Part shown: positions 2,412 to 57,269 of the stretch, piece by piece
How the letters are laid out: every line of letters starts with the position of its first letter
How positions within the stretch are numbered: position 1 is the first letter of the stretch
Assembly: GCA_963775275.1 (NCBI GenBank)
Contig: CAVZII010000005.1
Span: forward strand, 1,731,445 to 1,795,444
Source of the DNA: an uncultured Alphaproteobacteria bacterium
GTDB taxonomy: Bacteria; Pseudomonadota; Alphaproteobacteria; Caulobacterales; Caulobacteraceae
Direction: 5' to 3'
Length of the DNA: 64,000 nucleotides
Notes under the pieces: model-generated
Told to the model about the DNA's origin: nothing
Seen by the model: the letters and a program-made list of their open reading frames with translations, nothing else
Databases searched by the model: none
Translations under genes and position numbers: made by a program

Positions 2412-2913
2412 ATGCGGCGGCTGATCCTGATGCGGCACGGCGAGGCCGAGCGCCCGCGGCCGGGGCTGGAGGATTTCGAGCGCGCCCTGAACGCCGAGGG
2501 ACAGGCCGAAATCGGCCCGCGTGGGACGCGCCATCGCCGAAGCGGGCCTGGCGCCGGACCTGGCCCTGGTCTCGACGGCGACGCGGGCGCTGGAGACCTG
2601 GCGCGCCGTCGCGCCGTCCTTCCCGAAGGCCCAGGTTCGCGAGGACGCCGGCCTCTACGCCGCCCCGGCCTCGCGCCTGGCGGCGGCCGTGCGCGACGCG
2701 CCAGCGGCGCTGAGCGTGATCCTGGTGGGCCACAATCCCGGCCTTCACCAGTACGCTGTCCACCTGGCGCGCCAGGCCGACGCCTCGGGCGCCGAGGCGC
2801 GGACACTCTACGAGAAGCTCCCGACCGGGGCCGCGGCCGTGTTCGCGCTGGACGAGGCGGGCCGGCCGACGCTGGAGCGCCTGTTCCTGCCCAAGGCGCT
2901 GAGGGGACGATGA
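2412..2913 (+). CDS. sixA: Phosphohistidine phosphatase SixA-like (histidine phosphatase superfamily), interrupted by an apparent +1 frameshift near 2514
   Basis: N-terminus [13 protein letters not shown] (RHG catalytic motif) is in frame 0, and the remainder (..[35 protein letters not shown]..) is in frame 1 (track ORF 2521..2913). Removing one g of the 'gg' at 2514/2515 restores a continuous ~166-aa protein. Confidence 0.7.
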
Positions 2914-3233
2914 GCCTGATCTACAAGATCCTGCCCCAGGCCGAATGGGACGAGGCGCTCGCCGCCGGCCGCTTCGAAGGCTCGGGCATCGACCTGAAGG
3001 ACGGCTTCATCCACTTCTCGTCCCGGGAGCAGCTCAGCGAGACCCTGCGCCTTCACTTCGCCGGCCGGACGGGCCTCCTGGTCGTGGCCGTGGAGGCGTC
3101 TTCGCTCGGCGAGGCCCTGAAATGGGAGCCGTCGCGGGGCGGCGAGCTCTTCCCGCACCTCTATGGCGCCTTGCCGACCGAGCTCGCCTTGTCGGTCGAG
3201 CCGGTCGTCCCTCCGGGCGGCGGGGCCGCTTGA
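2910..3233 (+). CDS. DUF952 domain protein
   Basis: 107 aa [54 protein letters not shown], typical of the DUF952 family. ATG overlaps the sixA stop (ATGA). Confidence 0.8.
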
Positions 3234-4285
3234 GCCTGTTGGCCGACATCGGGGCGGCGGCGCTGCGGCGGCTGGACGCCGAGACCGCCCACAGGCTCGC
3301 GATCAAGGCGCTGAGCTCGGGCCTGGGTCCCGGCGCCGCGGGGCCGAACGACCCGGTCCTGCAGACCGATGTCGCGGGCCTGAGGCTGCCCAACGGCGTT
3401 GGCCTGGCGGCTGGCTTCGACAAGGACGCCGAGGCCCCGGACGCCATGCTGCGGGCCGGGTTCGGCTTCGTGGAGTGCGGCACGGTCACGCCGGCGCCCC
3501 AGCCCGGCAATCCGCGCCCGCGGGTGTTCCGGCTGGCCGAGGACCGGGCGGTGATCAACCGCTACGGCTTCAACAGCCAGGGACTCGCCGCATTCGCCGG
3601 CCGCCTGGAGCGGCGGGCACGGACCGGGGTCGTCGGGGCCAACATCGGGGCGAACAAGGACTCCGAGGACCGCGTCGGCGACTATGTCGAGGGGCTGAGG
3701 CGCCTCTGGACCCTGGCCGACTACTTCACCGTCAATATCTCCTCGCCCAACACGCCGGGGCTGCGCGACCTGCAGGCGCGCGCGGCGTTGGACGATCTGC
3801 TGGGGCGCCTGGCCGAGGCGCGCGCGGCGCTCAGCGCCGACGCCGGCGCGCGGCCGCTGCTGCTCAAGGTGGCGCCGGACCTGGAGGCTCGTCAGATCGA
3901 CGACATCTGCGGCTCGGTCCAGGCCCATGGCCTGGACGGAATCATCGTCGGAAACACCACGCTCAGCCGGCCGATGTGGCTGCACTCGAGTCTCAGGACC
4001 GAGGCGGGCGGGCTCTCGGGCGCGCCCCTGATGGCGCTGTCGACCCGGGTCCTGCGTCTCTTCCGCCAGAAGGCCGGCGACAGCCTCGCCCTGATCGGTT
4101 GCGGCGGGATCGGCTCGGGCGAGGACGCCTACGCCAAGATCCGCGCCGGCGCCCGCGCGGTCCAGCTCTATACCGCCATGGCCTATCAGGGCCTGGGCCT
4201 GGTCGGCCGGATCAAGCGCGACCTCGCGGCGCGTCTGCGCGCGGACGGCTTCGCGAGCCTTGGCGAGGCGGTCGGGACCAGCTGA
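3230..4285 (+). CDS. pyrD: Dihydroorotate dehydrogenase (quinone), class 2
   Basis: 351 aa with full-length PyrD similarity (..[52 protein letters not shown]). Likely TTG start at 3230, overlapping the DUF952 stop; no ATG is available. Confidence 0.85.
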
Positions 4286-4373
4286 CCCGTTGTGCCGGGC
4301 GCTCCCGGCGCCTATCATCGGGGCCGGCGCAGCTCCCCTTGCGCCTCAAGTGCTGTCAGCGAGATTTCCCGAG

Positions 4374-4934
4374 ATGGACGTGAAGGTCCCGGCCATGTCC
4401 GCCGCGCGCGCGAGCGTCCAAGGCTACGATCCCAAGCTGCACGACCCTTTCTTCGACGGCGTGTCCGACGCCCTGGCCGACAAGGGCTTCGTGACCGCGG
4501 GCCTGGACGACGTGATCACCTGGGCGCGTACGGGCTCGTTGATGTGGATGACCTTCGGGCTCGCCTGCTGCGCGGTCGAGATGATGCAGGCCTCGATGCC
4601 GCGCTATGACCTCGAGCGGTTCGGCTTCGCGCCCCGCGCCAGCCCGCGCCAGTCGGACGTGATGATCGTGGCGGGCACCTTGACCAACAAGATGGCTCCG
4701 GCCCTGCGCAAGGTCTACGACCAGATGCCCGAGCCGCGCTACGTGATCTCGATGGGCAGCTGCGCCAACGGCGGCGGCTACTACCACTACAGCTACGCCA
4801 TCGTCCGCGGCTGCGACCGGATCGTGCCGGTGGACGTCTATGTGCCGGGCTGTCCGCCCACCGCCGAGGCCCTGGTCTACGGCGTGCTGCAGCTGCAGAA
4901 GAAGATCCGCCGCACCGGCACGATCGAGCGGTAA
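4374..4934 (+). CDS. nuoB: NADH-quinone oxidoreductase subunit B (NuoB/Nqo6 family), stand-alone copy
   Basis: 186 aa [53 protein letters not shown]. All four Cys ligands of the N2 [4Fe-4S] cluster are present. No nuoA or nuoC is adjacent. Confidence 0.8.
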
Positions 4935-4992
4935 GCGATCGCACGAGAAGCGGGGACCGGTTCTCCGTTCGCGATCGCGCCGACGAGCGATG

Positions 4993-17917: not shown

Positions 17918-18073
17918 TCAGCGCAGGAGCACGAAGGGGACCCTCAGGAGATAGGCGAGGACGATGGTGACCGCGGCGGCGGCCGTGGCGATGCCGGCGA
18001 ACCAGCCCAGGCGGATCAGAAGGGACCCTGGAGGCGCGCCCGGCTCGGGCGGTCCCTCAATGATAGCCCGCAT
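17918..18073 (-). CDS. Small hydrophobic protein downstream of cydB (DUF2474/CydX-like candidate)
   Basis: 51 aa [51 protein letters not shown] with a single TM. It overlaps the cydB 3' end by 17 nt and abuts the thiE start. Small accessory proteins are typical of cyd operons. Confidence 0.4.
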
Positions 18074-19082
18074 CCGCACCCACCCGGCCGCGGAACAGCC
18101 AGTAGACGAGGGCCGTATAGCCCAGCACCAGCGGCAGCATGACCACGCCGCCGGCGAGCAGCAGGCCGAGCGCGCTGTCGGTCGAGGCGGCCTGCCGGAA
18201 GTCCAGGGCATAGGGAACGACATAGGGGAAGAAGCCGGCCGCAAGTCCGAGGTATCCGGACAGGAACACCAGGGCGGCCCCGGCGAAGGGCCAGGCCGGC
18301 GCCCCCCGCCTGAGACCGGCGGCGACCAGGGTCAGTCCGAGAAGGCCCACGAGCGGGATCGGCAGGCGGCGGATCAGGATCGGCCAGTTGACGTCGCCGC
18401 CGACGATCCCCCAGCGCTCGGCGATCGGCGGATGGACATAGAGCGTCGCCACGCTGACCGCGGCCAGGAAGACGGCCACGGCGAGGGCCGAGACCGCCGT
18501 CCAGCGGCGGGCCTTGTCGTGCAGGGCGCCCTCGGCCTTCATCACCAGCCATCCGGCGCCGAGCAGCGCATAGCCGGCGATCAGCCCCGCCGCCACCAGC
18601 AGGGAATAGGGCGTGAGCCAGTCGAAGGGGCCGCCTGCGAAGGCGTCGTTCCTGACCGTGACGCCCTGGATGAACCCGCCCAGCACCAGACCCTGGGCGA
18701 AGGTCGCCGTCAGCGACCCGCCGGCGAAGGCGGCGGTCCAGAAGCGCTTGCCGCGGCGGCGCCCGCGAAGGCGGAACTCGAAGGCGACGCCCCTCAGGAT
18801 CAGGCCGATCAGCATCAGATAGACCGGCAGGTAGAGCGCCGGCATCAGCACGGCGTAGGCCAGCGGGAAGGCCGCGAACAGGCCGCCGCCGCCCAGCACC
18901 AGCCAGGTCTCGTTGCCGTCCCAGACCGGCGCGATGGACGCCATCATCACATCCCGCTCCTTGGGATCGCGCGCGAGCGGGAAGAGGATGCCGACGCCCA
19001 GGTCGAAACCGTCCAGCAGCACATAAAGCAGCACCGCCAGGGCGATCAGCCCGGCCCAGATCAGGGGCAGGTCCAGGCTCAC
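18057..19082 (-). CDS. cydB: Cytochrome bd ubiquinol oxidase subunit II
   Basis: 341 aa VSLDLPLIWAGLIALAVLLYVLLDGFDLGVGILFPLA..PVWDGNETWLV.., the CydB signature. GTG start overlaps the cydA TGA (GTGA). Confidence 0.9.
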   Translation of the reverse strand: MSLDLPLIWAGLIALAVLLYVLLDGFDLGVGILFPLARDPKERDVMMASIAPVWDGNETWLVLGGGGLFAAFPLAYAVLMPALYLPVYLMLIGLILRGVAFEFRLRGRRRGKRFWTAAFAGGSLTATFAQGLVLGGFIQGVTVRNDAFAGGPFDWLTPYSLLVAAGLIAGYALLGAGWLVMKAEGALHDKARRWTAVSALAVAVFLAAVSVATLYVHPPIAERWGIVGGDVNWPILIRRLPIPLVGLLGLTLVAAGLRRGAPAWPFAGAALVFLSGYLGLAAGFFPYVVPYALDFRQAASTDSALGLLLAGGVVMLPLVLGYTALVYWLFRGRVGADAGYH

Positions 19083-20473
19083 GGCGCATCCTCCGGCGCA
19101 TCCTCCGGCGCGGCCGCCAGAGGCGAGCCGGGCGCGCGCGGCGTGGCCGGGGCGGCCTCGACCGCGCCCGGCAGCGGGCCCGCGCCGATCAGGCGCAGGA
19201 TGTAGAGCGCCCCCACGGTGAAGACGACGGCGTAGACGACCAGGAAGGCCAGGAGCGAGGCGCCGACCTGGCCGCCGCTCACGGGCGAGACGGCATCGGC
19301 GGTGCGCAGCGCCCCGAACACCGCGTAGGGCTGGCGGCCCACCTCGGCGGTGGTCCAACCGGCGATCACGGCGATGAACCCGGCCGGCCCCATGGCGACC
19401 GTGGCGACGAGGAAGGGCCGAGTGCGCTCGATGCGCCCACGGATCCATAGCCACGCGCCCCAAAGGCCGAGACCGATCATCAGAAGGCCCAGGCCGACCA
19501 TGATGCGGAAGGCCCAGAACACGACGACTGCCGGCGGCTGGTCGTCCCGTGGGAAGGCCTTGAGCCCGGTCACCACCGCCGAGGTCCTGCCGTGGGTGAT
19601 CCAGCTGCCGAGGCCCGGCACGGCGAGGTCCCAGTCATTTCCCTGTCGTTTGCGGTCGGGCCACGCCACGATGTGGAACGGCTGGGCCGGGCGCGTGTCC
19701 CAGAACGCCTCGATGGCCGCGAGCTTGGAGGGCTGGAGCTGGCCGACCAGCTTGCCCGAAGCGTCGCCGAGCAGGAGCTGGAGCGGCGCCACGATCGCGA
19801 ACATGCCGATGGCCATGCGAAGGGCGATGCGGGACTCCGGCTGGGCCGGGTCCTTCAGGAGTCGCCAGGCCGAGGCGGCGCCGACGACCAGGGCGGTCGA
19901 CAGATAGGCCGCCAGCACCATGTGGGCCAAGCGCAGGGGGAAGGTCGGCGAGAAGATCACAGCCAGCCAGTCGCGGGAGACGAAGCGGCCCGTCGCGTCC
20001 ACCGTGAAGCCGGTCGGGTACTGCATCCAGCTGTTGGCCGAGATGATCCAGAACGCCGACACCAGGGTGCCGAGGGCGACGAGGCAGGTGGCCAGGAAAT
20101 GCAGGCCCGGCCCCACCTTCTTCCAGCCGAACAGCATGACGCCCAGGAAGCTGGCCTCCAGGAAGAAGGCGGTCAGCACCTCGAAGCCCAGCAAGGGGCC
20201 GAGCACCGGGCCGGTGCGCGCGGAAAACACGCTCCAGTTGGCGCCGAACTGGTAGCTCATCACCACGCCGGACACGACGCCCATGCCGAAGGAGATGGCG
20301 AAGATCTTGAGCCAGTAGAGATAGAGGATCTTGAAGGCGGTGCGCCCGGTCTTGAGCCACAGCCCCTCGAGCACCGCCAGATAGCTCGCGAGCCCGATGG
20401 TGAAGCTCGGGAAGACGATGTGCCAGGCGACGGTGAAGGCGAACTGCAGCCGCGAGAGCAGGAGCGCGTCCAT
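19079..20473 (-). CDS. cydA: Cytochrome bd ubiquinol oxidase subunit I
   Basis: 464 aa MDALLLSRLQFAFTVAWHIVFPSFTIGLASY..GWKKVGPGLHF.. (Q-loop and heme ligands). ATG lies inside the longer 19079..20950 ORF. Confidence 0.9.
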   Translation of the reverse strand: MDALLLSRLQFAFTVAWHIVFPSFTIGLASYLAVLEGLWLKTGRTAFKILYLYWLKIFAISFGMGVVSGVVMSYQFGANWSVFSARTGPVLGPLLGFEVLTAFFLEASFLGVMLFGWKKVGPGLHFLATCLVALGTLVSAFWIISANSWMQYPTGFTVDATGRFVSRDWLAVIFSPTFPLRLAHMVLAAYLSTALVVGAASAWRLLKDPAQPESRIALRMAIGMFAIVAPLQLLLGDASGKLVGQLQPSKLAAIEAFWDTRPAQPFHIVAWPDRKRQGNDWDLAVPGLGSWITHGRTSAVVTGLKAFPRDDQPPAVVVFWAFRIMVGLGLLMIGLGLWGAWLWIRGRIERTRPFLVATVAMGPAGFIAVIAGWTTAEVGRQPYAVFGALRTADAVSPVSGGQVGASLLAFLVVYAVVFTVGALYILRLIGAGPLPGAVEAAPATPRAPGSPLAAAPEDAPEDAP

Positions 20474-23700: not shown

Positions 23701-24292
23701 TCAGGCGGCTGCGCGCGCCTCGGACACCTCGTCGACGAGCCCGAAGGCCTTGGCTTGCTCCGCGCTCATGAAGGTGTCGCGGTCCAGCGCCCGCTCGATC
23801 TCATCGAGAGTGCGCCCGCAGTGCTTCGCATAGAGCCGGTTGATGTTGGCCTGGGTCTCGAGCACGTCCTTGGCGTGGCGCTCTATGTCGCTGACCTTGC
23901 CCTGATAGCCGCCGGCGCCCTGGTGGACCATGATGCGGGCGTTGGGCATGGAGACGCGCCGGCCCGGCTCGCCGGCCATCAGCAGGAACGAGCCCATGGA
24001 GGCGGCGAAGCCGATGCAGTAGGTCGCCACCGGGCTCTTGATGTACTGCATGGTGTCGTAGATCGCGAAGCCGGCGGTCACCACGCCGCCCGGGGAATTG
24101 ATGTAGAGCGAGATCTCCTTCTTCGGGTTCTCGGCCTCGAGGTAGAGCAGCTGGGCGCAGATCAGCGCCGCCATGCCGTCCTCCACCTGTCCGTTCAGGA
24201 ACACGACCCGCTCGCGCAGCAGGCGCGAGAAGATGTCGAAGGCCCGCTCGCCGCGGCTCGAACTCCTCCACCACCATCGGCACGAGGCCCAT
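23701..24292 (-). CDS. clpP: ATP-dependent Clp protease proteolytic subunit ClpP, interrupted by an apparent +1 frameshift near 24263-24266
   Basis: N-terminus [10 protein letters not shown] is in one frame. The -1 frame then reads [35 protein letters not shown]... through the catalytic region to the stop (track ORF 23701..24204). The span is 592 nt (3n+1); deleting one g in ..gtggagGagttcg.. restores a 196-aa ClpP. Confidence 0.8.
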
Positions 24293-24642
24293 CACGCCGC
24301 CCACTTCAGGCCGGACTGCAAGCGCATCGACGGGCCGCGCCGGGCCCGGACCGCCGCCAGGGAGACGACCGCCGGGCTGTGGACCACGCGCAGGCGCACG
24401 CCGCCTGCGGGCGTGGGCGTCAGGGTGAACTCCACCTCGCTGGCCGCCCAGCCAGGCTCGCGCCAGGCATAACGGACCCGTTCGTTGGGTTCGGCCTGCA
24501 AGATCTCGAATTCCACGGCCGGGCCCGAATCGGCCTCGGCGGGCGCCAGCCAGGCGCCGACCAGGTCCGGGTCGGTCAGCGCGCGCCACACCTTTTCCAA
24601 TGGCTCCGCCAGGTCTGCCTCGACGATGACCTCATCGCTCAT
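24292..24642 (-). CDS. SRPBCC-superfamily protein (Aha1/activator-of-Hsp90-ATPase-like)
   Basis: 116 aa MSDEVIVEADLAEPLEKVWRALTDPDLVGAWL.. with the typical SRPBCC N-terminal motif. ATGA overlap with the upstream arsR; its stop overlaps the clpP ATG by 1 nt. Confidence 0.6.
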   Translation of the reverse strand: MSDEVIVEADLAEPLEKVWRALTDPDLVGAWLAPAEADSGPAVEFEILQAEPNERVRYAWREPGWAASEVEFTLTPTPAGGVRLRVVHSPAVVSLAAVRARRGPSMRLQSGLKWAA

Positions 24643-24953: not shown

Positions 24954-25035
24954 GCCGATAAATAAGTCATGACTTATGCGAAAGCGCAAGCGTCAAAGCA
25001 GACGGCGCCACGCGGCCTGCCGGAAGTTGGCGGAC

Positions 25036-33219: not shown

Positions 33220-33252
33220 GCCGAAATCGGCGCTCGGCGGGCGGAAATCGGC
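33220..33252. promoter_or_regulatory. Two 12-bp palindromes (GCCGAAATCGGC / GCGGAAATCGGC) spaced 21 bp centre-to-centre, in the divergent promoter region between flotillin and the small secreted protein
   Basis: Each site is a GCCGA-aa-TCGGC palindrome. Two helical turns apart suggests a tandem operator for a dimeric regulator. Confidence 0.4.
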
Positions 33253-34443: not shown

Positions 34444-34608
34444 CGCCGTTCCATGGGAGCCGCCCGAATCGCGCAGGGCGCGCAAGGAAGAATGAATGGG
34501 GCTGCTGCTGGTTCAAGGCAGCCAGATAACGCCTGCGCCCATGGGGCGCCCGCCGCCTTGCGTTTGATCAAGCAGCCGGTGCGAGCGACCGTGGACGGCC
34601 CGCCGGGC

Positions 34609-37738: not shown

Positions 37739-39220
37739 ATGAGATTCAAGTCCCTGGCGCTGGTCGGCGCCGTTGTCGTTGCCGCCGGCGCCTGGAGTTC
37801 GGCCTCGGGTCCGGCCGACGCCTGGCCGTTCCATTCGAAATCGGGGGCGGCGAAGCCGGCCTCCGCCGCTGCGCCGGCCGCGCCCCAGGCCGCGCCGGCC
37901 CAGGCCTCCGCGCCGCCGACGCCGAGGTCCCAGGACCTGCGCCGCCGCATCGGTCCCTTCGGCATCCCCTATCCGTTCGACCTGTCCTACATGCTGCGCG
38001 GCGGCTACGGCCCGTTCGGCCGGCCCAACCCCGAGATCAAGGGCCCGCCGCCCGGCGTCGAGCCCCTGCCGAACGACATGTTCACGTCCAAGAACTTCTA
38101 CAAGGACAGGAAGCTCTGGTCCGACCCGCGCTATTACCGCTGCAATACGCCCCGCGCGATGATCGAGTGGATGTGGGAGTCCGGCAAGATCGGCAAGAAC
38201 CCGCCGACCTCCGCCTCGTGGGGCGACAGCTGCGACAGCCTCTATCCGCGCGACAAGATCGTCAGCCCATATCCCTACAAGACCGCCAAGGCGCAGTACG
38301 AGGCCCTGCTCGCCAAGGCGAAGGCGCACGGCGGGCCCACGGTCTACACCAAGGCCACGACGCCGGACTGGGACGGATTCTACACGCGCGACCCGGACGC
38401 CAGCGACATCCCCTCCGGAAGCTATGTGGAGGACCGCCGCGCCGGCGGGCCGGGCCGCGGCGAGCGCTGGATCTGGGGCGGGATCGACCAGGCGCCGACG
38501 ATCCTGTCGCTCCTGACCCCGAAATATCAGACCCGCTGGGTCCAGGCGCTCTATCACGAGACCGTCGACAACTCGAAGCAGTGGAACGCTTCGTTCTGCT
38601 ATCCGGAAGGCTTCGTCCGCCTGTGGGCGGGAGCGTCCCAGGCGTCGAACTTCGAGCTGACCATGACGCCCTACAAGGTCCAGTTCCTGGGCGGCGTGGC
38701 CGACAATTTCCTGCGCGAGATCCTGATCGGGCGCCAGCACGTCCAGACGGTGCCCCAGTGGTACGGCGAGACGGTGGGCTTCTGGGACGGGGACACCCTG
38801 GTGACCTGGACCGCCGACATCCAGGGCTGGACCCAGCACACCATGTTCGAGTTCAGCTCGCAGATGGAGACGGTCGAGATCTTCAAGCCCGCCTACGACA
38901 AGAAGCATCACTTCATCGGCATCGACCACGAGGCGATCTGGTACGATCCCGAAGCCCTGGTGCAGCCGGTGCGGCTCTTCGAGCGCTACCTGCGCATCGC
39001 GCCGCCGAACGATCCCAGGGCGCGGTTCACCTTCATCGAGTGCCTGTCCAACATCAAGAACGTGAACGGCCGGCCCAAGCAGCTGACCAAGGAAGACCCG
39101 GACTACGTCGACTATTACGGCCGGCCCTGGGCCCAGAACTGGGAGACCTGGCTCGAGAAGGGCTGGGACAAGCCCGACGACGAAGAGGTGCCGCAGGACG
39201 TGCTCGACCTGTTGAAGTAG
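37739..39220 (+). CDS. Large secreted protein of unknown function, Trp/Tyr/Pro-rich (possibly DUF1329-like; unverified)
   Basis: 493 aa. Signal peptide [28 protein letters not shown], a low-complexity Ala/Pro linker, then a ~400-aa aromatic-rich domain. Native codon usage. Confidence 0.75.
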
Positions 39221-39274: not shown

Positions 39275-39754
39275 GTGAATACAGGAATGCTTACCGGCGC
39301 TCGGGCCGCCGCCATCGCAGCCGCGGCCGCCTTGGGGGCCGTGGCCGGCCCGGCCATGGCCCACCACTCCTTCGCCATGTACGACCAGACCAAGACCCTG
39401 GTCCTGACCGGCGTGACGACGACCTTCATCGGCCAGGCCAACCACGCCGAGCTGCACTTCTACATGATCGGGCCGGACGGCAAGCTGGAGCGGGGCAAGG
39501 ACGGCAAGTTCGTCGACTACGGCGTCGAGATGATGGGCGCCGCGGCCATGGCCGAGCAGGGGATCACGGCCGCGACCTTCCCTGCCGGCACCATCTTCAG
39601 CGTCAAGGTCAACCCCATGCGCGACGGCTCGAACTTCGGATCGCGCGCCGGCGCCACGCCGATCGCCAAGTGCCCCTGGAAGACGCCGCCCGCGCCGGGC
39701 AAGACCTGCGCCACCGTCAAGGGCGTGCAGCTGCTCGGCGGCGCTGCGTTCTAA
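39275..39754 (+). CDS. Small secreted protein whose mature N-terminus would begin His-His (DUF6152-like; family assignment from memory)
   Basis: 159 aa. Signal peptide ..AAAALGAVAGPAMA / HHSFAMYDQTKTLVLTGVTTTFIGQANHAELHF.. Two Cys near the C-terminus (..KCPWKTPPAPGKTCA..). Confidence 0.7.
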   Translation: MNTGMLTGARAAAIAAAAALGAVAGPAMAHHSFAMYDQTKTLVLTGVTTTFIGQANHAELHFYMIGPDGKLERGKDGKFVDYGVEMMGAAAMAEQGITAATFPAGTIFSVKVNPMRDGSNFGSRAGATPIAKCPWKTPPAPGKTCATVKGVQLLGGAAF

Positions 39755-39805
39755 GTCGCTCGCCCCGGCTCAGGCTTTCACGAAACCTGCGACAGGAGGC
39801 CCCCG

Positions 39806-40327
39806 GTGAAGGGTCTGGTGGACTGGATCGCCGCCACGCCGCTCAGCGTGCTGTTCCAGCAGCAGGAGGCGTGGCTCATCCCGACCGTCCAGTCGATCCA
39901 CATCGCCGGGATCGGGGTGGTGCTGGCCTGCGTGCTGGTGATGACCCTGCGCATCCTGGGCTATGCGGCGACGGACCTGACCGTGCTCCAGACCCAGCGG
40001 CGCTTCGGCCCCTGGCTGATCGGGGCGCTGTGGGTGCTGTTGGGGACCGGGATCCTGATGATCATCGCCGAGCCCGAGCGGGAGCTGATCACCTTCTCCT
40101 TCTGGGCCAAGATGACGCTGGTGGCGATCGGGACGGCGATCGCCCTGCTGTTCCAGCGGTCGGTCAGGGCCCGCGGCGAGGGCTGGGAGCTGTCGCTTCA
40201 GGGCCGCGCCCCAGTCAAGGCCATCGCCGTGGCGACGCTCCTGATCTGGCTCGTCATCGTCGTCCTGGGACGCCTGATCGCCTACGACCACGTGTGGGGC
40301 GTCCTGTCGCCCGCGACCAAGGCCTGA
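39806..40327 (+). CDS. 4-TM membrane protein of unknown function (paralog 1)
   Basis: 173 aa ..QSIHIAGIGVVLACVLVMTLRILGYAATD.., paralogous to the next gene (..ATHVIALTLVFGTIMIVDLRILGVASTN..). Confidence 0.7.
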   Translation: MKGLVDWIAATPLSVLFQQQEAWLIPTVQSIHIAGIGVVLACVLVMTLRILGYAATDLTVLQTQRRFGPWLIGALWVLLGTGILMIIAEPERELITFSFWAKMTLVAIGTAIALLFQRSVRARGEGWELSLQGRAPVKAIAVATLLIWLVIVVLGRLIAYDHVWGVLSPATKA

Positions 40328-40366
40328 GGCGCGCATGAGCCGGACATATCCCGAGGAGGCGACCGG

Positions 40367-40960
40367 ATGAGCGTCACCCCCCTGCTCGATGCGCTGCAGC
40401 ACTCCGGGCTCGCGTCCTACATCCGCAACTCCTTCCTGGCCTTCCCCCTGCTCGAGGCGACCCACGTCATCGCCCTGACCCTGGTGTTCGGCACGATCAT
40501 GATCGTCGACCTCAGGATCCTGGGCGTGGCCTCGACCAACCGGCTCTACACCCGCGTCTCGGACGACATGCTGAAGTGGACGTGGGGATTCTTCGGCCTC
40601 GCCGTCCTGACCGGCTCGCTGATGTTCATCACCAACGCGCGGATCTATTTCGACAACGGCTTCTTCCGCGCCAAGTTCGCCCTGATGGCGCTGGCGGGCC
40701 TGAACATGCTGGCCTTCCAGCTGACCACCGGCCGCCACCCGGCGGCCTGGGACTCCGGGCAGGCCGCGCCCCGGCTCGGCAAGGCGGCCGCGGTCCTGTC
40801 GCTGGTGCTCTGGGTGCTGGTGATCGGCATGGGCCGGGCGGTGGGCTTCTCCACCACCCGCCAGCAGGCCAAGGAGATCGCGCCGCCGGCCAATGTCGAT
40901 TTCAGCTCGTTCCTGGACAGCGGCCCATCAGACGCTCCCCCGGCGAGCAGCGGGAACTGA
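40367..40960 (+). CDS. 4-TM membrane protein of unknown function (paralog 2)
   Basis: 197 aa. Same topology and conserved blocks as 39806..40327, with an added Pro/Ala-rich C-terminal tail. Confidence 0.7.
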   Translation: MSVTPLLDALQHSGLASYIRNSFLAFPLLEATHVIALTLVFGTIMIVDLRILGVASTNRLYTRVSDDMLKWTWGFFGLAVLTGSLMFITNARIYFDNGFFRAKFALMALAGLNMLAFQLTTGRHPAAWDSGQAAPRLGKAAAVLSLVLWVLVIGMGRAVGFSTTRQQAKEIAPPANVDFSSFLDSGPSDAPPASSGN

Positions 40961-42654: not shown

Positions 42655-44182
42655 ATGCCGTCGATCTATCTGATCAACCCCGCGCCCTCGATCCCCGGCT
42701 TCTACACCGCCGAGGCCTTCCGCGACGGCGCCCGCGGCTGGGCCCGCGTGGCCGATCTCGCCATCGCCACGGTCGCGGCGATGATCCCGGATCACTGGCA
42801 GGTGCGACTGACCGACGAGTTGATCGACCCCGCCGACCTGGACGCGCCGGAGGGCTTCATCGGCATCACCGGCAAGTCCTCGCAGCGGGACCGGATGATC
42901 GAGCTTGCCGCTCACTACCGCGCGCGCGGCAAGACCGTGATCATCGGCGGGCCTTACGCGACCCTCAACGTCGACGATATGACCCCTCATGCGGACGTGC
43001 TCGTCGCCGGCGAGATCGAGGAGATCGCGCCGCAGATCTTCGCAGATCTGGAGTCCGGATCCTTCCAGCCGCGCTATGACGGCGGCAAGGCCGACATCCG
43101 CCGCTCGCCGGTCCCGCGCTGGGACCTGTATCCGATCGAGCGCGCCATGACCGGCGCCCTGCAGACCACGCGCGGATGCCCGTTCTCGTGCGAATTCTGC
43201 GATGTCATCCAGTACCAGGGCCGCAAGCAGCGGCATAAGGACCTGCCTCAGATCATCGCCGAGCTCGACGCGCTCTACGAGGCCGGCTTCCGCAACGTCT
43301 TCCTGGTGGACGACAATTTCACGGTGCACCGCCGATTCGCCCGCGAGGTGCTGACGGCCATCGCCGGGTGGAACGCCGCCAAGCCGGAGCCCTTCTATTT
43401 CTCGACCCAGGCGTCCCTCGACATCGCCCGCGACGAGGAGCTCCTCGACCTCTGCTACGCCGCGGGCCTGCACATCCTGTTCGTCGGCGTTGAGACGATC
43501 AACGAGGAGAGTTCTGAAGGAAACCGGCAAGAAGCAGAACCTCCTGATGCCCATGCTCGAGGCGCTCGACCGGATCGTCTCACATGGCATCGGGCTGCGG
43601 GCGGGCATCGTGGTCGGGTTCGACCACGACGACGCCGGCATCTTCTCGACCCTGCTGGAATTCTTCGACGCCGCGCCTTTGCCCACCCTGTCGATCAGCG
43701 TGCTCAACGCCCCGGCGCAGACGGACCTCTATCACCGCCTCGAAGCCGAAGGCCGGCTGCGCGGGAGCTCGGTCGGAACCGGCGCGGGCAAATTGTTCGA
43801 CACCAACATCGTTCCGGCCGGGATGAGCCGCGCCGAACTGCTCGAGGGCGCCCTGTGGCTGTCCCAGCAGGCGTTCTCGCCGGCCCGGTTCAAGGAACGG
43901 ATGCTCCGGTTCATCGACCGGTTCCCTGCGGACCTGCCGGCCGCCAGGCGCGGCGCGGCCGAACCGGGCCGTTACGGCTACCGACTGTTCTCGGTGCTCA
44001 AGCGGGAGTTGAGAGGCGATCCGGAGGTCTCCGCAATGACCCAGGATATCCTCAGGGCCGGCATGGCCAAGCCCGCGGTCCTCCCGGCGATCATGGACGC
44101 CCTGGCCCTCTACGCCCAGACGCTCCACGTGATGAACCGCGAGACCGAGGGCGCGACGGAGGTGACCGAGGCGGCCGCCTAG
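42655..44182 (+). CDS. Cobalamin(B12)-binding-domain radical SAM protein (class B rSAM), interrupted by an apparent +1 frameshift near 43532
   Basis: N-terminal B12-binding-like region, then ..TTRGCPFSCEFCDV.. (CxxxCxxC), then ..FVGVETINEES in the frame of ORF 42655..44217. Continues ..LKETGKKQNLLMPMLEALDRIVSHGIGLRAGIVVGFDHDD.. in the frame of ORF 43490..44182. Deleting one t of agTTctgaag joins them into ~508 aa. Confidence 0.8.
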
Positions 44183-44273
44183 AGCGGCGCTCCGATCAAG
44201 TCGGAGCGCCGCTCTAGAAGTCTTGATTTGTCGTGTTTTCCAGCGGCGAACCGGTGTGCACATCGCTGGAAAA
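44180..44273. terminator. Two hairpins between the convergent rSAM and FAAL genes: perfect 16-bp palindrome TAGAGCGGCGCTCCGA-tcaagt-CGGAGCGCCGCTCTA (44180..44216) and TTTTCCAGCG-N18-CGCTGGAAAA (44236..44273)
   Basis: Read directly from the sequence. The first stem includes the rSAM stop codon. Confidence 0.55.
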
Positions 44274-44276
44274 CGC

Positions 44277-45956
44277 TTAGGTCGATCGGGTCGCCCAGCG
44301 GCCCAGAAGGCGGCTCTCGCCGGTCCGGATCGTCGGCTTCAACGTTTCCGCCAGATAGAGCTCGCGGCAGGCGCTCCGCCGCACCTTGCCGCTGGTGGTC
44401 AAGGGGATCGCGCGACGGCGGACCAGAAGCAGGTCGTGCAGCCGCACGCCGAACCCCTGGGCGACGGCCCGAACAGCGGCCTCCACCATTGGCGCGCCCG
44501 CGTCGGCGCCCGTGCCGCGCTCGACTTCCTGGACAGCGACAACCCCGCCGTCGTCAAGCTGGAAGACCGCCCCGACGCCCGCGAACCCGGCGTGGCTGGC
44601 GCCGACCGCCTGCTCGATGTCCGCGGGGTGCAGGTTCTCGCCCCGATGGATGATCACGTCCTTCAGCCGGCCCGTCACGAAGAGCTCGCCATCGGACAGG
44701 AACCCGAGGTCGCCGGTCCTGAGATACGCCAGCCTGGATCCCTCGAGCCGTGCGCCGAAGGCCGCGGCGGTCTCCTCGGGGCGACGCCAGTAGCCATCGG
44801 CGAGGCTGGGCCCCGCCGCCCATATCTCGCCCTCCTCGCCCTCGGCGCAGCGCAGGCAGGTCACCGGATCGACGATCTGGACACTCACTCCGGGAACCGG
44901 GGCCCCGCAGCCGACGATCGGCGGCGCGTCCGGCGTCCGCGCGGCCCGGGTCCGGACCCCGCCGCGCGGGCCGCCCGAGATCACCAGCGTCGCCTCGGCC
45001 AGCCCGTAGCCGGGGCGCAGAGCCTCGGCGCGGAAGCCGAGCGGCGCGAACGCCTCGGCGAACCGCAGCATCGTCGCCGCCCGGACCGGCTCGGCGCCGC
45101 AGAAGGCGCTGTCCCAGGACGACAGGTCCACGCCGGTCAGGTCCATCCGCTCGGCGCGCCGGGCGCAGAGCTCGAAGGCGAAGTTGGGCGCGCCGCTGTA
45201 GGTCGCCCGATGGCGGCTGATCGCCTTCAGCCACCGCTCGGGCTTCTGCATGAAGGTCAGGGCCGGGGCCAGCACGCAGGGGCGTCCGGCATAGGCGGCG
45301 ACGAGGAAGGCGCCGATCAGGCCCATGTCGTGGAACAGGGGCAGCCAGCTGAACACCACGGCCTGGTCGTGCAGCCACAGGCCGTGACGGATCATCTCGA
45401 GGTTCGCGGCCAGCGCCCCGTGGCTGACCAGGACGCCTCTCGGCGCGGATTGCGATCCGGACGTGTACTGCAGCAACGCCGGATCCCCGGCGGAACGAAG
45501 GATCGGCGCCTCGAGCCCCTCGCCGGCCGCCCCGCCTTCCAGCTCGTCGAGCATGATCCAGGGGACCTGCGCGAGCTCCGCCTTCAGGGCGGCTTCCGCC
45601 GAGGTTGCGAGGATCGCCTCGACCCCGGCGTCCTGGGCGACCGCCTTCAGGCGCCGCCATCCTTCGCCGCGCCCGTGCGCCGGCGCGGGGGTCGCGATCG
45701 CCCCGGCGTAGAGGCAGGCCCAGAAGCCGACCGCGAAGGTCACGCCGGGCGACTGCATCACGAGAACCGGCCGGCCTTGCATCCCGCGCCGGACCAGTGT
45801 CGCGGCGAGGCGAAGGGCTCGGGCGTGGAGGTCGCCGAAACTGATCTCGTCCGTCTCGGTCTCGCCGTCGCCCATGACCGTCAAGGCCGTCACGGCCGGG
45901 TCGCGCCGGGCATGCCGCTCGAACGCCCCTGCCAGCCCGTTGGGCGCCTGGCTCAA
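44277..45956 (-). CDS. Fatty-acyl-AMP ligase (FAAL) / AMP-dependent synthetase-ligase
   Basis: 559 aa with full-length ANL adenylating-enzyme motifs (..LLQYTSGSQSAPRGVLVSHG.., ..YGLAEATL.., ..GDLGFLSDGELFVTGRLKD.., ..SGKVRR..) and an FAAL-type insertion. Probable TTG start overlaps the stop of the upstream carrier protein (TTGA). Confidence 0.85.
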   Translation of the reverse strand: MSQAPNGLAGAFERHARRDPAVTALTVMGDGETETDEISFGDLHARALRLAATLVRRGMQGRPVLVMQSPGVTFAVGFWACLYAGAIATPAPAHGRGEGWRRLKAVAQDAGVEAILATSAEAALKAELAQVPWIMLDELEGGAAGEGLEAPILRSAGDPALLQYTSGSQSAPRGVLVSHGALAANLEMIRHGLWLHDQAVVFSWLPLFHDMGLIGAFLVAAYAGRPCVLAPALTFMQKPERWLKAISRHRATYSGAPNFAFELCARRAERMDLTGVDLSSWDSAFCGAEPVRAATMLRFAEAFAPLGFRAEALRPGYGLAEATLVISGGPRGGVRTRAARTPDAPPIVGCGAPVPGVSVQIVDPVTCLRCAEGEEGEIWAAGPSLADGYWRRPEETAAAFGARLEGSRLAYLRTGDLGFLSDGELFVTGRLKDVIIHRGENLHPADIEQAVGASHAGFAGVGAVFQLDDGGVVAVQEVERGTGADAGAPMVEAAVRAVAQGFGVRLHDLLLVRRRAIPLTTSGKVRRSACRELYLAETLKPTIRTGESRLLGRWATRST

Positions 45957-46201
45957 GCCGCGGGCCCCTCGGCGGCGGCGGCCAGCCGACGGTCGATCCA
46001 GGCCGCCACCGCGCGGGCGTCGCTGTGTTCCTCGAACTGGTCGCTCGGCAGCTCGATCGCAAACCTCAGCTCCAGCTCCACGGCGATCTGGAGCGTCTGC
46101 ATGGAGTCCCCGCCCAGACTGTAGACGTCCTTGTCCACGTCCGCACAGGGACGGCCCAACACCTGCGCGTACACCGACTGCACGATGTCGAGCGTGGTCA
46201 T
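45953..46201 (-). CDS. Acyl/peptidyl carrier protein 1 (PCP-like GGDSM 4'-phosphopantetheine site)
   Basis: 82 aa MTTLDIVQSVYAQVLG..DVYSLGGDSMQTLQIAVELE.. ATGA overlap with the upstream gene. Confidence 0.8.
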   Translation of the reverse strand: MTTLDIVQSVYAQVLGRPCADVDKDVYSLGGDSMQTLQIAVELELRFAIELPSDQFEEHSDARAVAAWIDRRLAAAAEGPAA

Positions 46202-47484
46202 TGCATCCCGGGGCCCGGTGCAAAGACGCCGGCGATGACGCCGGCCAGCTCGCCCCGCAGCAGCATCTCGCCCGCGACGGCGTGGCGGCTCAGACCTTCG
46301 ACGCTCACCAGGCGCACATTGTCCAGATCCCCGATCGCTTCCGCCTGGGTGCGGTCGAGCACGACCTCCGACCCGAAATAGAGGTCGATGAGCGGCCCTG
46401 CAGCGCTCTCGACCAGTCTTGGCCGGATGGGGCCGATCATATCCGGGACATATTGCACGAGGCGTTTCTTGATCCTCCCGACGTGGCCGTCATCGGAAAG
46501 CACGCCCTGGTGCAGCGTCGTAGGCGCGCCAAAGCCCAACACCCGTTCGACGCCGAGGTCCAGCCCGTATCTCATGGCCGCAAAGCCTCCCGCCGATGCC
46601 CCGATGGTCGCCAACCGGCGAACGCCCCAGCGCTTCAGCCGCCGACGCAGCGCAAGCAGCGTTTCTGCATAGTCGCGCCCGAGCGCGGGGTTCCCTGCCA
46701 GGTGAAGGAGCCGGTTCGGGTCGAAGAGGTAGATCGCGTTCACGCCGAGCGGGATCAACATCGCCTGGATGAGATCAACGGGAACGCCGCCGAAGCTGCC
46801 GTCCAGACCCGCGAACACCAGGGCCGCGGCGTCCGATCCCCGTCGGCGGTCGAAGACGGCGGGGCCTCGCCCCACGAGTGGGTGGACGCCCCCGACGGCC
46901 GACCTGCAGGTCGAGATCACGTCGATGACCGTCAACAGGATCCGGACCTCACGCGCGTCCTTTTCATGCGTTGCGCGCGGGGCGATCGAGATCAGGCTTT
47001 CCCGCGCCGGCCTCGTCATTCCGCTGCCGATCAGGCGTCGGGCCGCCTCGATCCCGACCGACACCGGTACGGACGGTTTGGCGAGCGTCTCGAGCAGGAA
47101 TTCCGGACCTGACAGGTCGGGGAGGAAGGGGGCCAGCATGACCCGCAAGTGCTGGACGTGTGGATCGCCTGGCTCGATCTCGGAGGCGCGCGACAACCAG
47201 CCGACGGCCTGCTCGACGTCGCCGGACTTGCGGGTGAGTTCGCCGAGCCGGCAAGGCCACCGGGGATTCCCGGGCTCCAGCTCGTGCAGGCGGATCATGC
47301 AGGCCGCCTCCAGCGAAGGGTCACGGCACCCATCCGCAATGTGCGCGGCGCGCCTCAGTCCGTCGGCGTCGAGCTGTGCGGCGTCCAGGGCCGATCGTAT
47401 CGCCGCAGAAGCCGCCTGGCGCTCTCCACGCTTGAGATGGTGACGACAGGATTTCAGCGTCCGCTCTTGGAGAGCCCGGTCCAT
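46198..47484 (-). CDS. TPR-like N-terminal domain plus alpha/beta-hydrolase-fold C-terminal domain protein (GASAGG nucleophile elbow), paralog A
   Basis: 428 aa from MDRALQERTLKS... C-terminal ~230 aa ..ALVFAGLDGSFGG..AIYLFDPNRL..RRLATIGASAGGFAAMRYGLDLG.. with downstream Asp and a ..SRHAV.. His consistent with a Ser-Asp-His triad. About 55% identical to paralog B. The upstream part of ORF 46198..47943 is shadow. Confidence 0.7.
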   Translation of the reverse strand: MDRALQERTLKSCRHHLKRGERQAASAAIRSALDAAQLDADGLRRAAHIADGCRDPSLEAACMIRLHELEPGNPRWPCRLGELTRKSGDVEQAVGWLSRASEIEPGDPHVQHLRVMLAPFLPDLSGPEFLLETLAKPSVPVSVGIEAARRLIGSGMTRPARESLISIAPRATHEKDAREVRILLTVIDVISTCRSAVGGVHPLVGRGPAVFDRRRGSDAAALVFAGLDGSFGGVPVDLIQAMLIPLGVNAIYLFDPNRLLHLAGNPALGRDYAETLLALRRRLKRWGVRRLATIGASAGGFAAMRYGLDLGVERVLGFGAPTTLHQGVLSDDGHVGRIKKRLVQYVPDMIGPIRPRLVESAAGPLIDLYFGSEVVLDRTQAEAIGDLDNVRLVSVEGLSRHAVAGEMLLRGELAGVIAGVFAPGPGMQ

Positions 47485-47558
47485 ATCCGATCGTCGGGGT
47501 CCCGCCCGAGGTTTGCAACGACCATCCGGCGACTTGCCGCCGGCTGCGTCGAGCGGAC

Positions 47559-47810
47559 TCAACCCATCGGGCCGGGCCCGGCGAGGGCCGCGCGCTGGCG
47601 GTCGATCCAGGCCGCGACGGAGCGCGCGTCGCTGCACTCTTCGAACTCCTCGAGCGGGAGCTCCAACGCGAACTGCAACTCCAGCTCGAGGGCGATCTGG
47701 ACCGCCTGAACCGAGTCCCCGCCGAGCGCATAGACGTCCGCGTCCACGTCGGGCGCGTCGAGGCCCAGGACTTCGGCGTAGACCGTCCGTACGACGTCCA
47801 GTGTGGTCAA
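47559..47810 (-). CDS. Acyl/peptidyl carrier protein 2 (paralog of 45953..46201)
   Basis: 83 aa MTTLDVVRTVYAEVLG..DVYALGGDSVQAVQIALELE.., about 65% identical to carrier 1. ATGA overlap with the hydrolase B stop. Confidence 0.8.
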   Translation of the reverse strand: MTTLDVVRTVYAEVLGLDAPDVDADVYALGGDSVQAVQIALELELQFALELPLEEFEECSDARSVAAWIDRQRAALAGPGPMG

Positions 47811-55421: not shown

Positions 55422-55430
55422 GAGAAAACC

Positions 55431-55718
55431 ATGCCGCTCTTCGTGATCAGCTGGCGGGACAAGCCGGACAGCCTGCAGGTGCGGATGGACGCGCGCGAGG
55501 CGCACCTGAACTATGCGGCCAAGCTCGGCGACCGGGTCAAGCTCGGCGGGCCTTACCTCGACGCCGAAGGGCGCATGATCGGCTCGCTGATCATCGTGCA
55601 GGCCGAGAGCCTCGATGAGGCCATGGCGCTGCACGACGCCGATCCCTACAAGCTCGCCGGCCTGTTCGAGACCTCGGACGTCACGCCCTGGCGGGTCACG
55701 CTCAACAGCTTCGCTTGA
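55431..55718 (+). CDS. YciI-family protein (Dabb-like)
   Basis: 95 aa MPLFVISWRDKPDSLQVRMDAREAHLNYAAKLGDRVKLGGPYLDAEGRMIGSLIIVQAESLDEAMALHDADPY is the YciI-like signature. Confidence 0.8.
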   Translation: MPLFVISWRDKPDSLQVRMDAREAHLNYAAKLGDRVKLGGPYLDAEGRMIGSLIIVQAESLDEAMALHDADPYKLAGLFETSDVTPWRVTLNSFA

Positions 55719-55773
55719 GGGCGTCTTAACCGGAGCCGGCTAGGAGGACGGGGAACCTCGTCAGGACCCCTTC

Positions 55774-56490
55774 ATGGCCGATCCCCTGCGCGCCCTGGCC
55801 TCGATCAACGGCCGCTTCGCGCCCGCCTTCGCCCAGACCATGCTCGTCTCGCCCCGCGCCAGCGGGGACGTGGCGGCCTTCCAGGCCCATGCGAGGGAGA
55901 CCGGCTTCGAGTTCACCGACCTGTGGGCCGACAACAACATCCCCTTCATCGCCCCCGTGCTGCGCCGGTTCGCCAGGTGGAAGGACAGGATCCGCTACCT
56001 CGAGATCGGCGCCTATGAGGGCCGCAACCTCGCCTTCATGGACTGGCTCCTGCCCGGCAAGCTGGAAGTCACGGTGATCGACCCCTGGTTCGACCCGGAC
56101 CTCAATCCCGAGGACAAGTACCACGCGGTCGAGCCCCGATTCGGACGCAACGCTGATAAGCTCGCCTTCCCGTCGCTGACGGTGACCAAGGGCTTCTCCA
56201 CCTACGAGCTGCCCAGGATGCTCGAGGCCGGACAGGGCTTCGACCTCATCTATGTGGACGGCACCCACACCGCGCTCGGGGTGATGATCGACCTGTGCTT
56301 CTGCGCGGCCATGCTGGAGGTCGGCGGTCTGATGATCCTGGACGACTACTGGCATCAAGAGAGCGAGATCGGGGGTCCGGGCGTGAAGCAGGCGGTGGAC
56401 CGGTTCCACGGCGCCTTCCGCCGCTACTTCGAGCTGGAGGCGGTCTACCGCCAGGTGGTGCTGCGCAAGACGGCCGAGATCCCGCGCTGA
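55774..56490 (+). CDS. Class I SAM-dependent methyltransferase (O-methyltransferase-like)
   Basis: 238 aa ..RYLEIGAYEGRNLAFMDW.. (motif I-like) ..DLIYVDGTHT.. (motif post-II). Family-level call only. Confidence 0.7.
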   Translation: MADPLRALASINGRFAPAFAQTMLVSPRASGDVAAFQAHARETGFEFTDLWADNNIPFIAPVLRRFARWKDRIRYLEIGAYEGRNLAFMDWLLPGKLEVTVIDPWFDPDLNPEDKYHAVEPRFGRNADKLAFPSLTVTKGFSTYELPRMLEAGQGFDLIYVDGTHTALGVMIDLCFCAAMLEVGGLMILDDYWHQESEIGGPGVKQAVDRFHGAFRRYFELEAVYRQVVLRKTAEIPR

Positions 56491-56608
56491 CGGTCCCGCG
56501 TCCAGGGAATCTGAACGTCTTTTCCGAAGAACTGAACGGCCGGCGCGTTTCCTCGGGCCAACCGGGCGACTAGATTGCCTCCCAAGCTCGATAAGGAGGC
56601 CAAAGCCC

Positions 56609-57269
56609 ATGCCGCTTCAGCTCAACGACACCGCTCCGGACTTCACCGCCGAGACCACCGAGGGACCGATCCGCTTCTACGACTGGGCGGGCGATTCCTG
56701 GGTGCTGCTGTTCTCCCACCCCAAGGACTTCACGCCGGTCTGCACCACCGAGCTCGGCGCGGTCGCCAGGCTCAAGCCGGAGTTCGACAAGCGCGGGGTC
56801 AAGGTGATCGGCCTGTCGGTGGACCCGGTCGAGAACCATTCGGCCTGGTCCAAGGACATCGAGGAGACCCAGGGCCTGGCTCCCAACTTCCCGATGATCG
56901 GCGACACGGACCTGAAGGTCTCCAAGCTCTACGGCATGTTGCCGGCGGACACGGAGGGGACGTCCGAGGGCCGCACGGCGGCCAACAACGCCACGGTCCG
57001 CAACGTCTTCGTCATCGGACCGGACAAGCAGATCAAGCTCCTGCTGGTCTACCCGATGACGACCGGGCGGAACTTCGAGGAGATCCTGCGGGTGATCGAA
57101 CTCCATGCAGCTCACCGCCCGTCACAAGGTCGCGACGCCGGCGGACTGGAAACAGGGCGAGGACGTGATCATCGTCCCGGCGGTCTCCAACGACCAGGCC
57201 AAGGACATGTTCCCCAAGGGCTTCAAGGAGCTGAAGCCCTACCTGCGGACCACGCCCCAGCCGGGGTGA
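56609..57269 (+). CDS. 1-Cys peroxiredoxin (Prx6-like), interrupted by an apparent +1 frameshift near 57099
   Basis: MPLQLNDTAPDFTAETTEGPIRFYDW..HPKDFTPVCTTELG..LLLVYPMTTGRNFEEILRVI then the frame shifts. The -1 frame continues DSMQLTARHKVATPADWKQGEDVIIVPAVSNDQAKDMFPKGFKELKPYLRTTPQPG*, the canonical Prx6 C-terminus. Deleting one a of gAActcc restores 219 aa. Confidence 0.8.

Follow-up and report, generated by a model that had tools for sequence, protein, structure and literature searches.

Frameshifts at GANTC sites in five genes of an uncultured alphaproteobacterium are very probably methylation-linked consensus errors of the deposited assembly

The alphaproteobacterial cell-cycle methyltransferase CcrM, an enzyme that is conserved in, and characteristic of, Caulobacteraceae and Alphaproteobacteria, acts on the sequence GANTC. 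In nanopore-only assemblies of agrobacteria and Brucella, residual errors have been found at GANTC (PMC12710330, PMC12392509), and the nanopore errors that have been tied to base modification are for the most part substitutions (PMC10687267, PMC12710330). We analyzed a window of 64,000 nucleotides (i.e., the whole stretch of DNA studied here) from an uncultured alphaproteobacterium, in which five genes are each interrupted by a single surplus base located in a GANTC site.

The five genes that carry a +1 lesion (i.e., one surplus base in the gene's own direction) are sixA, encoding a phosphohistidine phosphatase (2412-2913, plus strand; span of 502 bases, with frame 0 followed by frame +1); clpP (24292 to 23701, minus strand; span of 592 bases, with the lesion 10 codons past the start); a YqiK-like SPFH/flotillin gene (33137 to 31079, minus strand; span of 2059 bases, lesion at codon ~50); a gene for a B12-binding-type radical SAM protein (B12-rSAM; 42655-44182, plus strand; span of 1528 bases, lesion at codon ~287) and a 1-Cys peroxiredoxin gene (Prx; 56609-57269, plus strand; span of 661 bases, lesion at codon ~164). 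As the original prediction had stated, all five lesions are present, each span equals 3n+1, and the repair of one nucleotide restores the frame. GC3 phase and coding signal are strong on both sides of every lesion, and each gene shows one lesion, no secondary lesions and no decay of the coding signal.

Frame changes were sought by a GC3 frame-switch scan, and candidates were checked against Pfam domains. No further frameshift of either sign was found among the ~71 genes of the window scanned in this way, which bears out the earlier claim of zero -1 events; five frameshifts per 71 genes are far above chance. Domains in the other scanned genes were full-length, except for five segments without a Pfam match. 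Nine other abutting frame changes were explained by normal gene boundaries, with Pfam domains complete on either side, i.e., metX/metW (~1027/1063), DUF952/pyrD (~3209/3215), DUF2093/M23 (~15204/15237), an unassigned ORF/MmcB (~21183/21218), PadR/DUF2218 (~25464/25488), DsbB/COQ7 (~28504), DedA/DsbB (~29016/29041), ACP/AMP-ligase (~45968/45992) and DUF2244/Ada (~62086/62173). Same-frame runs at hslV/hslU, gpsA/YCII, hemD and its neighbour, and DUF6152/DUF6644 represent separate genes and not in-frame stops. The original prediction also warned of further undetected indels, a warning that remains valid for intergenic DNA; substitution errors, which are invisible without a reference, may be present too.

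All five lesions were located within a hexamer GAANTC, i.e., a GANTC with its A doubled, and removal of one A from GAANTC restores both GANTC and the reading frame in every case. The hexamer reads GAAATC (GAATC plus A; 2508-2513, plus strand) in sixA and GAACTC (GACTC plus A) on the plus strand in clpP (24260-24265; GAGTTC in gene orientation), in the flotillin gene (32983-32988) and in Prx (57098-57103). In B12-rSAM, GAACTC is found on the minus strand and GAGTTC on the plus strand (43509-43514; GACTC/GAGTC plus one base); this is the correct place of a lesion previously put at ~43532. The shared motif had been overlooked in the earlier work, which had reported that each extra base doubles its neighbour. 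This holds for all five lesions, although the identity of the doubled base given as "gg" was wrong for sixA and is not required in clpP. The joint probability that five lesions would all fall in GAANTC by chance was P ~7e-8, and none of 200,000 random placements matched the observation. Approximately 7% of coding GANTC sites in the window carry an insertion. A strict flanking-sequence rule for the affected sites was sought in the window, and a weak trend alone was seen, with 4 of 24 HGACTC sites affected as compared to 0 of 25 GGACTC sites (p = 0.05); such a mild flanking-base dependence at GACTC is consistent with a signal effect at the k-mer level.

Homologs of all five proteins are intact, and their alignment supports the repaired reading frames. 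Repaired SixA aligns without gaps across the junction with PDB 2rfl and 22 homologs. Removal of an A yields ..AES ARVG.., in agreement with the homolog consensus "AES", while removal of a G yields "AEI", which occurs in no homolog; SixA homologs carry S, T or A after "..AE", and never I. The homologs thus contradict an extra g (gg, ~2514) in sixA and support the A of GAAATC at 2508-2513 instead. Repaired ClpP aligns without gaps with the E. coli ClpP structure from residue 1. The lesion proposed at ~24264 in this gene stands, but the "gg" is not required, as the T of GAGTTC can be removed equally well, which fits the motif common to the five lesions. This clpP has no clpX nearby and lies in an ArsR-SRPBCC-clpP arrangement, and might therefore be a paralog rather than the essential gene. 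The flotillin repair, in a protein with a Band_7 domain, aligns without gaps with 13 homologs, in which the sequence reads "RKRFGxSxKGxG-PIAF", and in repaired B12-rSAM an unbroken Radical_SAM domain covers residues 170-326, spanning the junction. In Prx, the last stop of the downstream frame ends at 57095, which places the extra base within 57096-57104, and the conserved Asp codon GAC is regenerated only by removing an A. The repaired Prx sequence "EILRVIDSMQLT" matches "EILRVIDSLQLT" of PDB 6p0w, and no residue differs across the junction between it and its closest homolog (P0007). Judged by bit score, the top Prx hits (P0004-P0006) resembled near-identical orthologs, but they proved to be chimeric duplicated ORFs and were set aside. 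For sixA and Prx, homologs pin the extra base to the motif.

A second consensus is available from the Logan k-mer assembly of run ERR11571143, which probably derives from the same read data and does not represent an independent isolate; the accession of the run did not turn up in the literature that could be searched. Logan contig L001 matches the window at 100% over 1,649 bp, and contig L002 shows, over 1,906 bp, no mismatches and two 1-bp indels, both at GANTC sites. Over the ~3.5 kb compared, the two consensuses thus disagree exactly, and solely, at GANTC. The flotillin lesion is the only one of the five that could be compared. Look-ups of neighbouring genes found no Logan contig on record that covers the lesions of sixA, clpP or Prx, or the extra regions sought. 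The flotillin insertion (32983) is missing from L002, which reads GACTC. On the other hand, L002 lacks the G of an intact GANTC (GAATC; 32994-32998, plus strand) 11 bp away, so that flotillin is broken in L002 too, by a different indel. At 32994 the window encodes R-F-G (CGA-TTC-GGC), and as at least 90% of homologs share this R-F-G, the window is correct at this site and Logan wrong. Each consensus hence is wrong at a different site, i.e., Logan is right at 32983 and the window at 32994. The left end of L002 lies inside a GANTC; its right end (34150) lies on GAAGTC, which is in-frame within a gene and not a GANTC, and was not counted as evidence.

We consider it very likely that the five frameshifts are consensus errors at methylated GANTC sites in a deposited assembly built from long reads only, and not biology. 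The DNA of the organism would carry N6-methyladenine at GANTC, written by CcrM; the modified base would distort the sequencing signal at its k-mer and thereby make reads noisy at GANTC, with both insertions and deletions; and the assembler or polisher would have settled on G-A-A-N-T-C in place of G-A-N-T-C at the affected ~7% of coding sites. Judging from taxonomy, GANTC is probably methylated in this organism. The platform was presumably nanopore, with the error arising at basecalling or polishing. A PacBio origin, with extra pulses opposite m6A, is conceivable; it would still be methylation-linked and is part of the same explanation. The deposit consists of a single 4.48-Mb contig, most likely the genome (or a MAG) of a novel Caulobacterales-like alphaproteobacterium obtained by nanopore sequencing, and the real genes are most likely intact in the organism. 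The earlier proposal of systematic insertion errors is thereby strongly supported, given that five of five lesions double the A of GANTC and that Logan disagrees with the window at GANTC only.

One alternative is that methylation plays no part. The lesions would then be homopolymer or random indels of the kind seen in unpolished PacBio CLR or early nanopore assemblies, and the coincidence with GANTC would merely reflect how frequent the Glu-Phe (GAG-TTC) codon pair is. PacBio CLR errors are typically dominated by insertions, and GAANTC is indeed common in the window, with 114 occurrences, most of them in-frame codon pairs. However, the chance probability given above was calculated with the true hexamer density in the window, in-frame codon pairs included. 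Moreover, none of the lesions lies in the longest homopolymers present (A5, C7, G6 and T4), random events would include deletions and sites outside the motif, and the disagreement with Logan is motif-specific as well. We therefore regard this alternative as very unlikely.

Similarly improbable, in our judgement, is that the lesions are real mutations, i.e., that the organism, or a dominant subpopulation of it, truly carries the five genes as pseudogenes, perhaps owing to a GANTC-specific mutational hotspot. In line with this reading, the lesions are present in the deposited assembly, flotillin is broken in the Logan contig as well (by the other indel), and exact look-up of the intact versions of the five proteins in public collections gave no verbatim match. 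However, Logan lacks the flotillin insertion and carries its own lesion at a GANTC where homologs back the window, and the gene halves retain their coding signal and high identity to homologs, with no secondary lesions. It is implausible that 64 kb of housekeeping DNA would have gained five recent pseudogenes, each through a single +1 event and each at the same motif, and we know of no mechanism for the insertion of an A specifically at m6A, which also counts against real mutations. The argument of the original prediction against natural pseudogenisation is supported by the motif-bound lesions, the intact coding signal and the Logan contig without the flotillin insertion. A variant of this reading, in which GANTC sites are real +1/-1 indel hotspots in the living population and the assembly and Logan capture different alleles, seems less probable again. 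Such hotspots might be caused, for example, by replication slippage or by repair errors provoked at hemimethylated CcrM sites. The finding that two consensuses from the same population differ at one motif only points to read noise and not to alleles.

For each of the five genes, a frameshifted or truncated product has been recorded from the deposited 4,483,369-bp NCBI/ENA contig, i.e., a C-terminal fragment of SixA (2521-2913), a truncated ClpP of 167 aa (23701-24204), an N-truncated flotillin call of 614 aa (starting at ATG 32923), a C-terminal fragment of B12-rSAM (43547-44182) and a Prx read-through product of 225 aa. The possibility that the lesions were put into the window after deposition, deliberately or accidentally, as a synthetic perturbation of clean sequence, had been suggested by their uniform pattern (+1 only, each doubling a neighbouring base). 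As the broken products are present in the deposited contig, the window was not tampered with, and deliberate perturbation, one of the options of the original prediction, is excluded. Random hits would also not have placed five of five lesions in GANTC (P ~7e-8), and the indel that Logan itself shows at a neighbouring GANTC would be left unexplained; we thus give post-deposition changes of any kind next to no credence. The truncated products already stand as cluster representatives in protein databases. Every neighbouring protein tested was a singleton 90% cluster, a contig scan around the gene at 33661-34485 found only relatives of 39% identity or less, and the nearest named relatives are Caulobacteraceae, Phenylobacterium, Asticcacaulis and Rhizomicrobium. 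By these comparisons, the lineage appears to have no close relatives.

The genes might also be expressed as they stand, if ribosomes underwent a programmed +1 frameshift or transcription slipped at GAA-NTC. This would account for a short sequence common to five sites and for shifts in one direction, but is extremely improbable: homologs of all five proteins are single-frame; the sites show no in-frame stop, rare codon or stimulator of the Shine-Dalgarno type, such as those of prfB; the codon phase of the hexamer varies, as does its strand with respect to the gene (in B12-rSAM it is the non-coding strand that bears the doubled A, where a translational signal would be meaningless); and the flotillin base is missing from the Logan contig.

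Overall, these data indicate that the five lesions do not represent a real biological feature and are of little biological consequence, as the genes are almost certainly intact. A deposited chromosome-scale assembly carries motif-specific insertion errors, which provides a useful quality warning; extrapolated to 4.5 Mb, the same rate might translate into a few hundred genes that are falsely split or truncated and feed databases as "novel" fragments. The signature GANTC to GAANTC offers a simple reference-free route by which errors of this kind can be located and corrected in Alphaproteobacteria that carry CcrM, and it may indirectly report GANTC modification in an uncultured lineage.

As in natural pseudogenes, each gene is cut by a 1-bp indel; however, the lesions described here are motif-specific and unidirectional, show no secondary lesions, and a second consensus of the same population speaks against one of them. 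Like homopolymer indels in long-read and 454 data, they are single-base indels that lead to frameshifted and truncated calls in an otherwise good assembly. Unlike homopolymer indels, they occur in runs of 2-3 bases (AA/AAA) and are bound to a motif and not to run length; runs of up to C7, G6 and A5 are unaffected in coding DNA in the window. When compared to Oxford Nanopore errors at methylation motifs (i.e., Dam GATC, Dcm CCWGG and CcrM GANTC; PMC12710330, PMC12392509, PMC10687267), the published errors are dominated by substitutions, whereas here five of five are single-base insertions that double an A, in addition to one Logan deletion. Nanopore errors linked to modification less typically consist of single-base insertions alone, which counts against the explanation that we prefer. 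On the other hand, both sets of errors recur at one motif, affect a subset of its copies with flanking context mattering, survive consensus building and polishing, are mostly located in coding DNA and differ between consensus procedures.

Because long spurious ORFs are plentiful in the window (G+C approx. 70%), coding frames were called by codon-position GC. Direct translation showed that sixA (2412-2913, plus strand), clpP (24292 to 23701, minus strand), an SPFH/flotillin gene (33137 to 31079, minus strand), a B12-type radical SAM gene (42655-44182, plus strand) and a 1-Cys peroxiredoxin gene (56609-57269, plus strand) each have a start-to-stop span of 3n+1 and, read along the gene, shift from frame f to f+1. 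The five +1 disruptions of the original prediction were thus all borne out, although the radical SAM lesion had been placed about 20 nt from its actual site (43509-43514). A frame scan identified nine more places where coding segments in differing frames abut, all of which represented ordinary gene boundaries by Pfam (metX/metW, DUF952/pyrD, DUF2093/M23 peptidase, ORF/MmcB, PadR/DUF2218, DedA/DsbB/COQ7, ACP/AMP-ligase and DUF2244/Ada); boundary segments with a Pfam match carried full-length domains, and the sole segment without a match was one short upstream ORF. Other genes were full-length in a single frame, including those for P-II, prolyl oligopeptidase, a LysR protein and an SDR as well as pepN, dnaK, dnaJ, xseA, thiE, cydAB, hemC, hemD, hemY, tsaD, gpsA, hslVU and nth. 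The frame scan and Pfam therefore revealed no frameshift of either sign beyond the five +1 lesions in approx. 71 genes, in agreement with the predicted absence of -1 events.

All five lesions are enclosed by GAANTC on one strand, i.e., GAAATC at 2508 (sixA), GAACTC at 24260 (clpP), 32983 (flotillin) and 57098 (peroxiredoxin), and GAGTTC at 43509 (radical SAM; GAACTC on the minus strand); deletion of the doubled base regenerates GANTC, the target of the CcrM methyltransferase, and restores the frame. As the hexamer is common (114 copies in the window, most of them Glu-Phe or Glu-Leu codon pairs read in frame), significance was assessed from its actual density, with junction intervals spanning 9-35 nt; the co-location of lesions and hexamers was highly significant (joint P ~7e-8), and none of 200,000 random placements matched it. 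The GAANTC form was found at 5 of 68 coding GANTC sites. The effect of the flanking base was weak (HGACTC affected at 4/24 sites vs. GGACTC at 0/25; p = 0.05) and fits a k-mer signal cause.

Homology located the extra base to different degrees. In the peroxiredoxin gene it is confined to 57096-57104, and the conserved Asp of "RVIDS(M/L)QLT" is recreated only by loss of an A. In sixA, the predicted extra G of a "gg" pair was rejected, as 22 homologs carry S, T or A, and never I, after "..AE"; these residues fit GAA-TCG, i.e., removal of an A. The repaired ClpP and radical SAM proteins align without gaps, and homology alone does not pin their extra base. Flotillin homologs with 72-78% identity ("VGLVRKRFGxSxKGxG-PIAF") are likewise gapless against the repaired flotillin.

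A second consensus, probably derived from the same reads as the window and covering only the flotillin lesion of the five, was available as two Logan k-mer assembly contigs of run ERR11571143. The first, L001, is 100% identical to the window over 1,649 bp. The second, L002, shows zero mismatches over 1,906 bp and two 1-bp gaps, both at GANTC sites, 11 bp apart; its start also lies inside a GANTC. At the first gap L002 reads GACTC where the window reads GAACTC, so the flotillin lesion is missing from L002. At the second (window 32994-32998; L002 ~752) L002 has -AATC vs. GAATC, a 1-bp deletion which breaks flotillin in another way than the deposited assembly. As homologs are gapless against the repaired flotillin, L002 has the correct reading at the first site and the window has it at the second; the true sequence retains both motifs, and the two consensuses differ both in the indel they carry and in the GANTC that it affects. 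Such disagreement is the expected product of read-level noise at one motif, not of alleles or random errors.

Generic homopolymer or random indels do not explain these data, as they leave the motif specificity unaccounted for and the longest runs (C7, G6, A5) are unaffected. Natural pseudogenisation, already disfavored in the original prediction, is contradicted by L002, where the inserted flotillin base is not reproduced, by the intact coding signal with one lesion per gene, and by the uniform motif and direction. Programmed frameshifting is excluded, since orthologs are single-frame and the motif is found on the coding strand in some of the genes and on the opposite strand in others. Deliberate perturbation, which had also been proposed, is excluded because the window reproduces the deposit: exact-sequence look-up traced the broken products of all five genes to one deposited NCBI/ENA contig of 4,483,369 bp (a 225-aa peroxiredoxin read-through, C-terminal fragments of SixA and the radical SAM protein, a truncated ClpP and an N-truncated flotillin). 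None of the repaired proteins has a verbatim match in public collections. Tested neighboring proteins were all singleton 90% clusters, indicating a lineage without a close sequenced relative.

Across the window, GANTC is strongly underrepresented (82 observed vs. ~280 expected; first-order Markov model) and 2.4-fold denser in non-coding DNA (2.67/kb vs. 1.11/kb in coding DNA). GAAATC/GATTTC hexamers fall in the non-coding 11% of the window in 13 of 18 cases (2335, 2369, 4363, 27073, 27793, 29722, 33223, 33244, 37669, 37837, 39241, 42268 and 47450; odds ratio ~21, p = 2e-9). This excess may reflect only the greater AT content and denser GANTC of intergenic DNA, but some sites could represent hidden erroneous insertions of A into GAATC; L002 is the same as the window at 33223 and 33244.

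The broken clpP lies in an ArsR (24639-24989), SRPBCC/AHSA1-like (24292-24642), clpP arrangement (23701-24989) with overlapping stop and start codons; no clpX, tig or lon was found nearby, and this clpP may be a second paralog rather than the essential housekeeping copy. Beyond the radical SAM gene, the opposite strand encodes an AMP-dependent ligase (44277-45968), an ACP (45953-46201), a TPR protein (46198-47313) and, at 47559-47801, a second ACP; the whole region (42655-47801) is a possible small cluster for modifying lipids or natural products, and G+C and GC3 dip slightly at 46-47.5 kb. At 39320-40960, a DUF6152 gene and two DUF6644 paralogs lie in tandem, preceded in the same reading frame by a 449-aa ORF (37871-39220) without a Pfam match. 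AT skew is unusually high (0.32) at 18001-20000, over cydA/cydB (minus strand). A ThiF/MoeB ORF (57374-58555, minus strand) overlaps hslV (58149-58781, plus strand) by approx. 400 nt; as its ThiF domain starts at aa 143, the overlap is probably an ORF-calling artifact of high G+C, with the real start near 58170. In other public metagenome assemblies, peroxiredoxin ORFs (P0004-P0006) are chimeric and internally duplicated and flotillin homologs (P0264, P0278, P0280, P0311) have frameshift-like out-of-frame tails, so that assembly artifacts are common for both families in the protein database.

The nearest named homologs (50-87% identity) are from Caulobacteraceae, Phenylobacterium, Asticcacaulis and Rhizomicrobium, and in Alphaproteobacteria of this kind CcrM methylates the GANTC adenine (PMC12710330). 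GANTC errors persist in nanopore-only assemblies of agrobacteria and Brucella, where methylation-aware models lessen them and more depth does not clear them (PMC12710330, PMC12392509). From these relationships we infer that the lesions are artifacts, i.e., errors at the CcrM methylation motif, with no biological novelty: m6A at GANTC, on a presumed nanopore platform, would disturb basecalling or polishing, so that approx. 7% of coding GANTC sites would be resolved as GAANTC. The systematic insertion error originally predicted was hence right, and is narrowed to the CcrM motif by the five GAANTC contexts and the L002 disagreement at GANTC. In practice, the result provides a quality flag for the deposited assembly and a reference-free repair rule (GAANTC to GANTC wherever the frame is thereby restored). 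Compared to published modification-linked errors, which are mainly substitutions (PMC10687267), the insertion-only lesions of the window are somewhat unusual.
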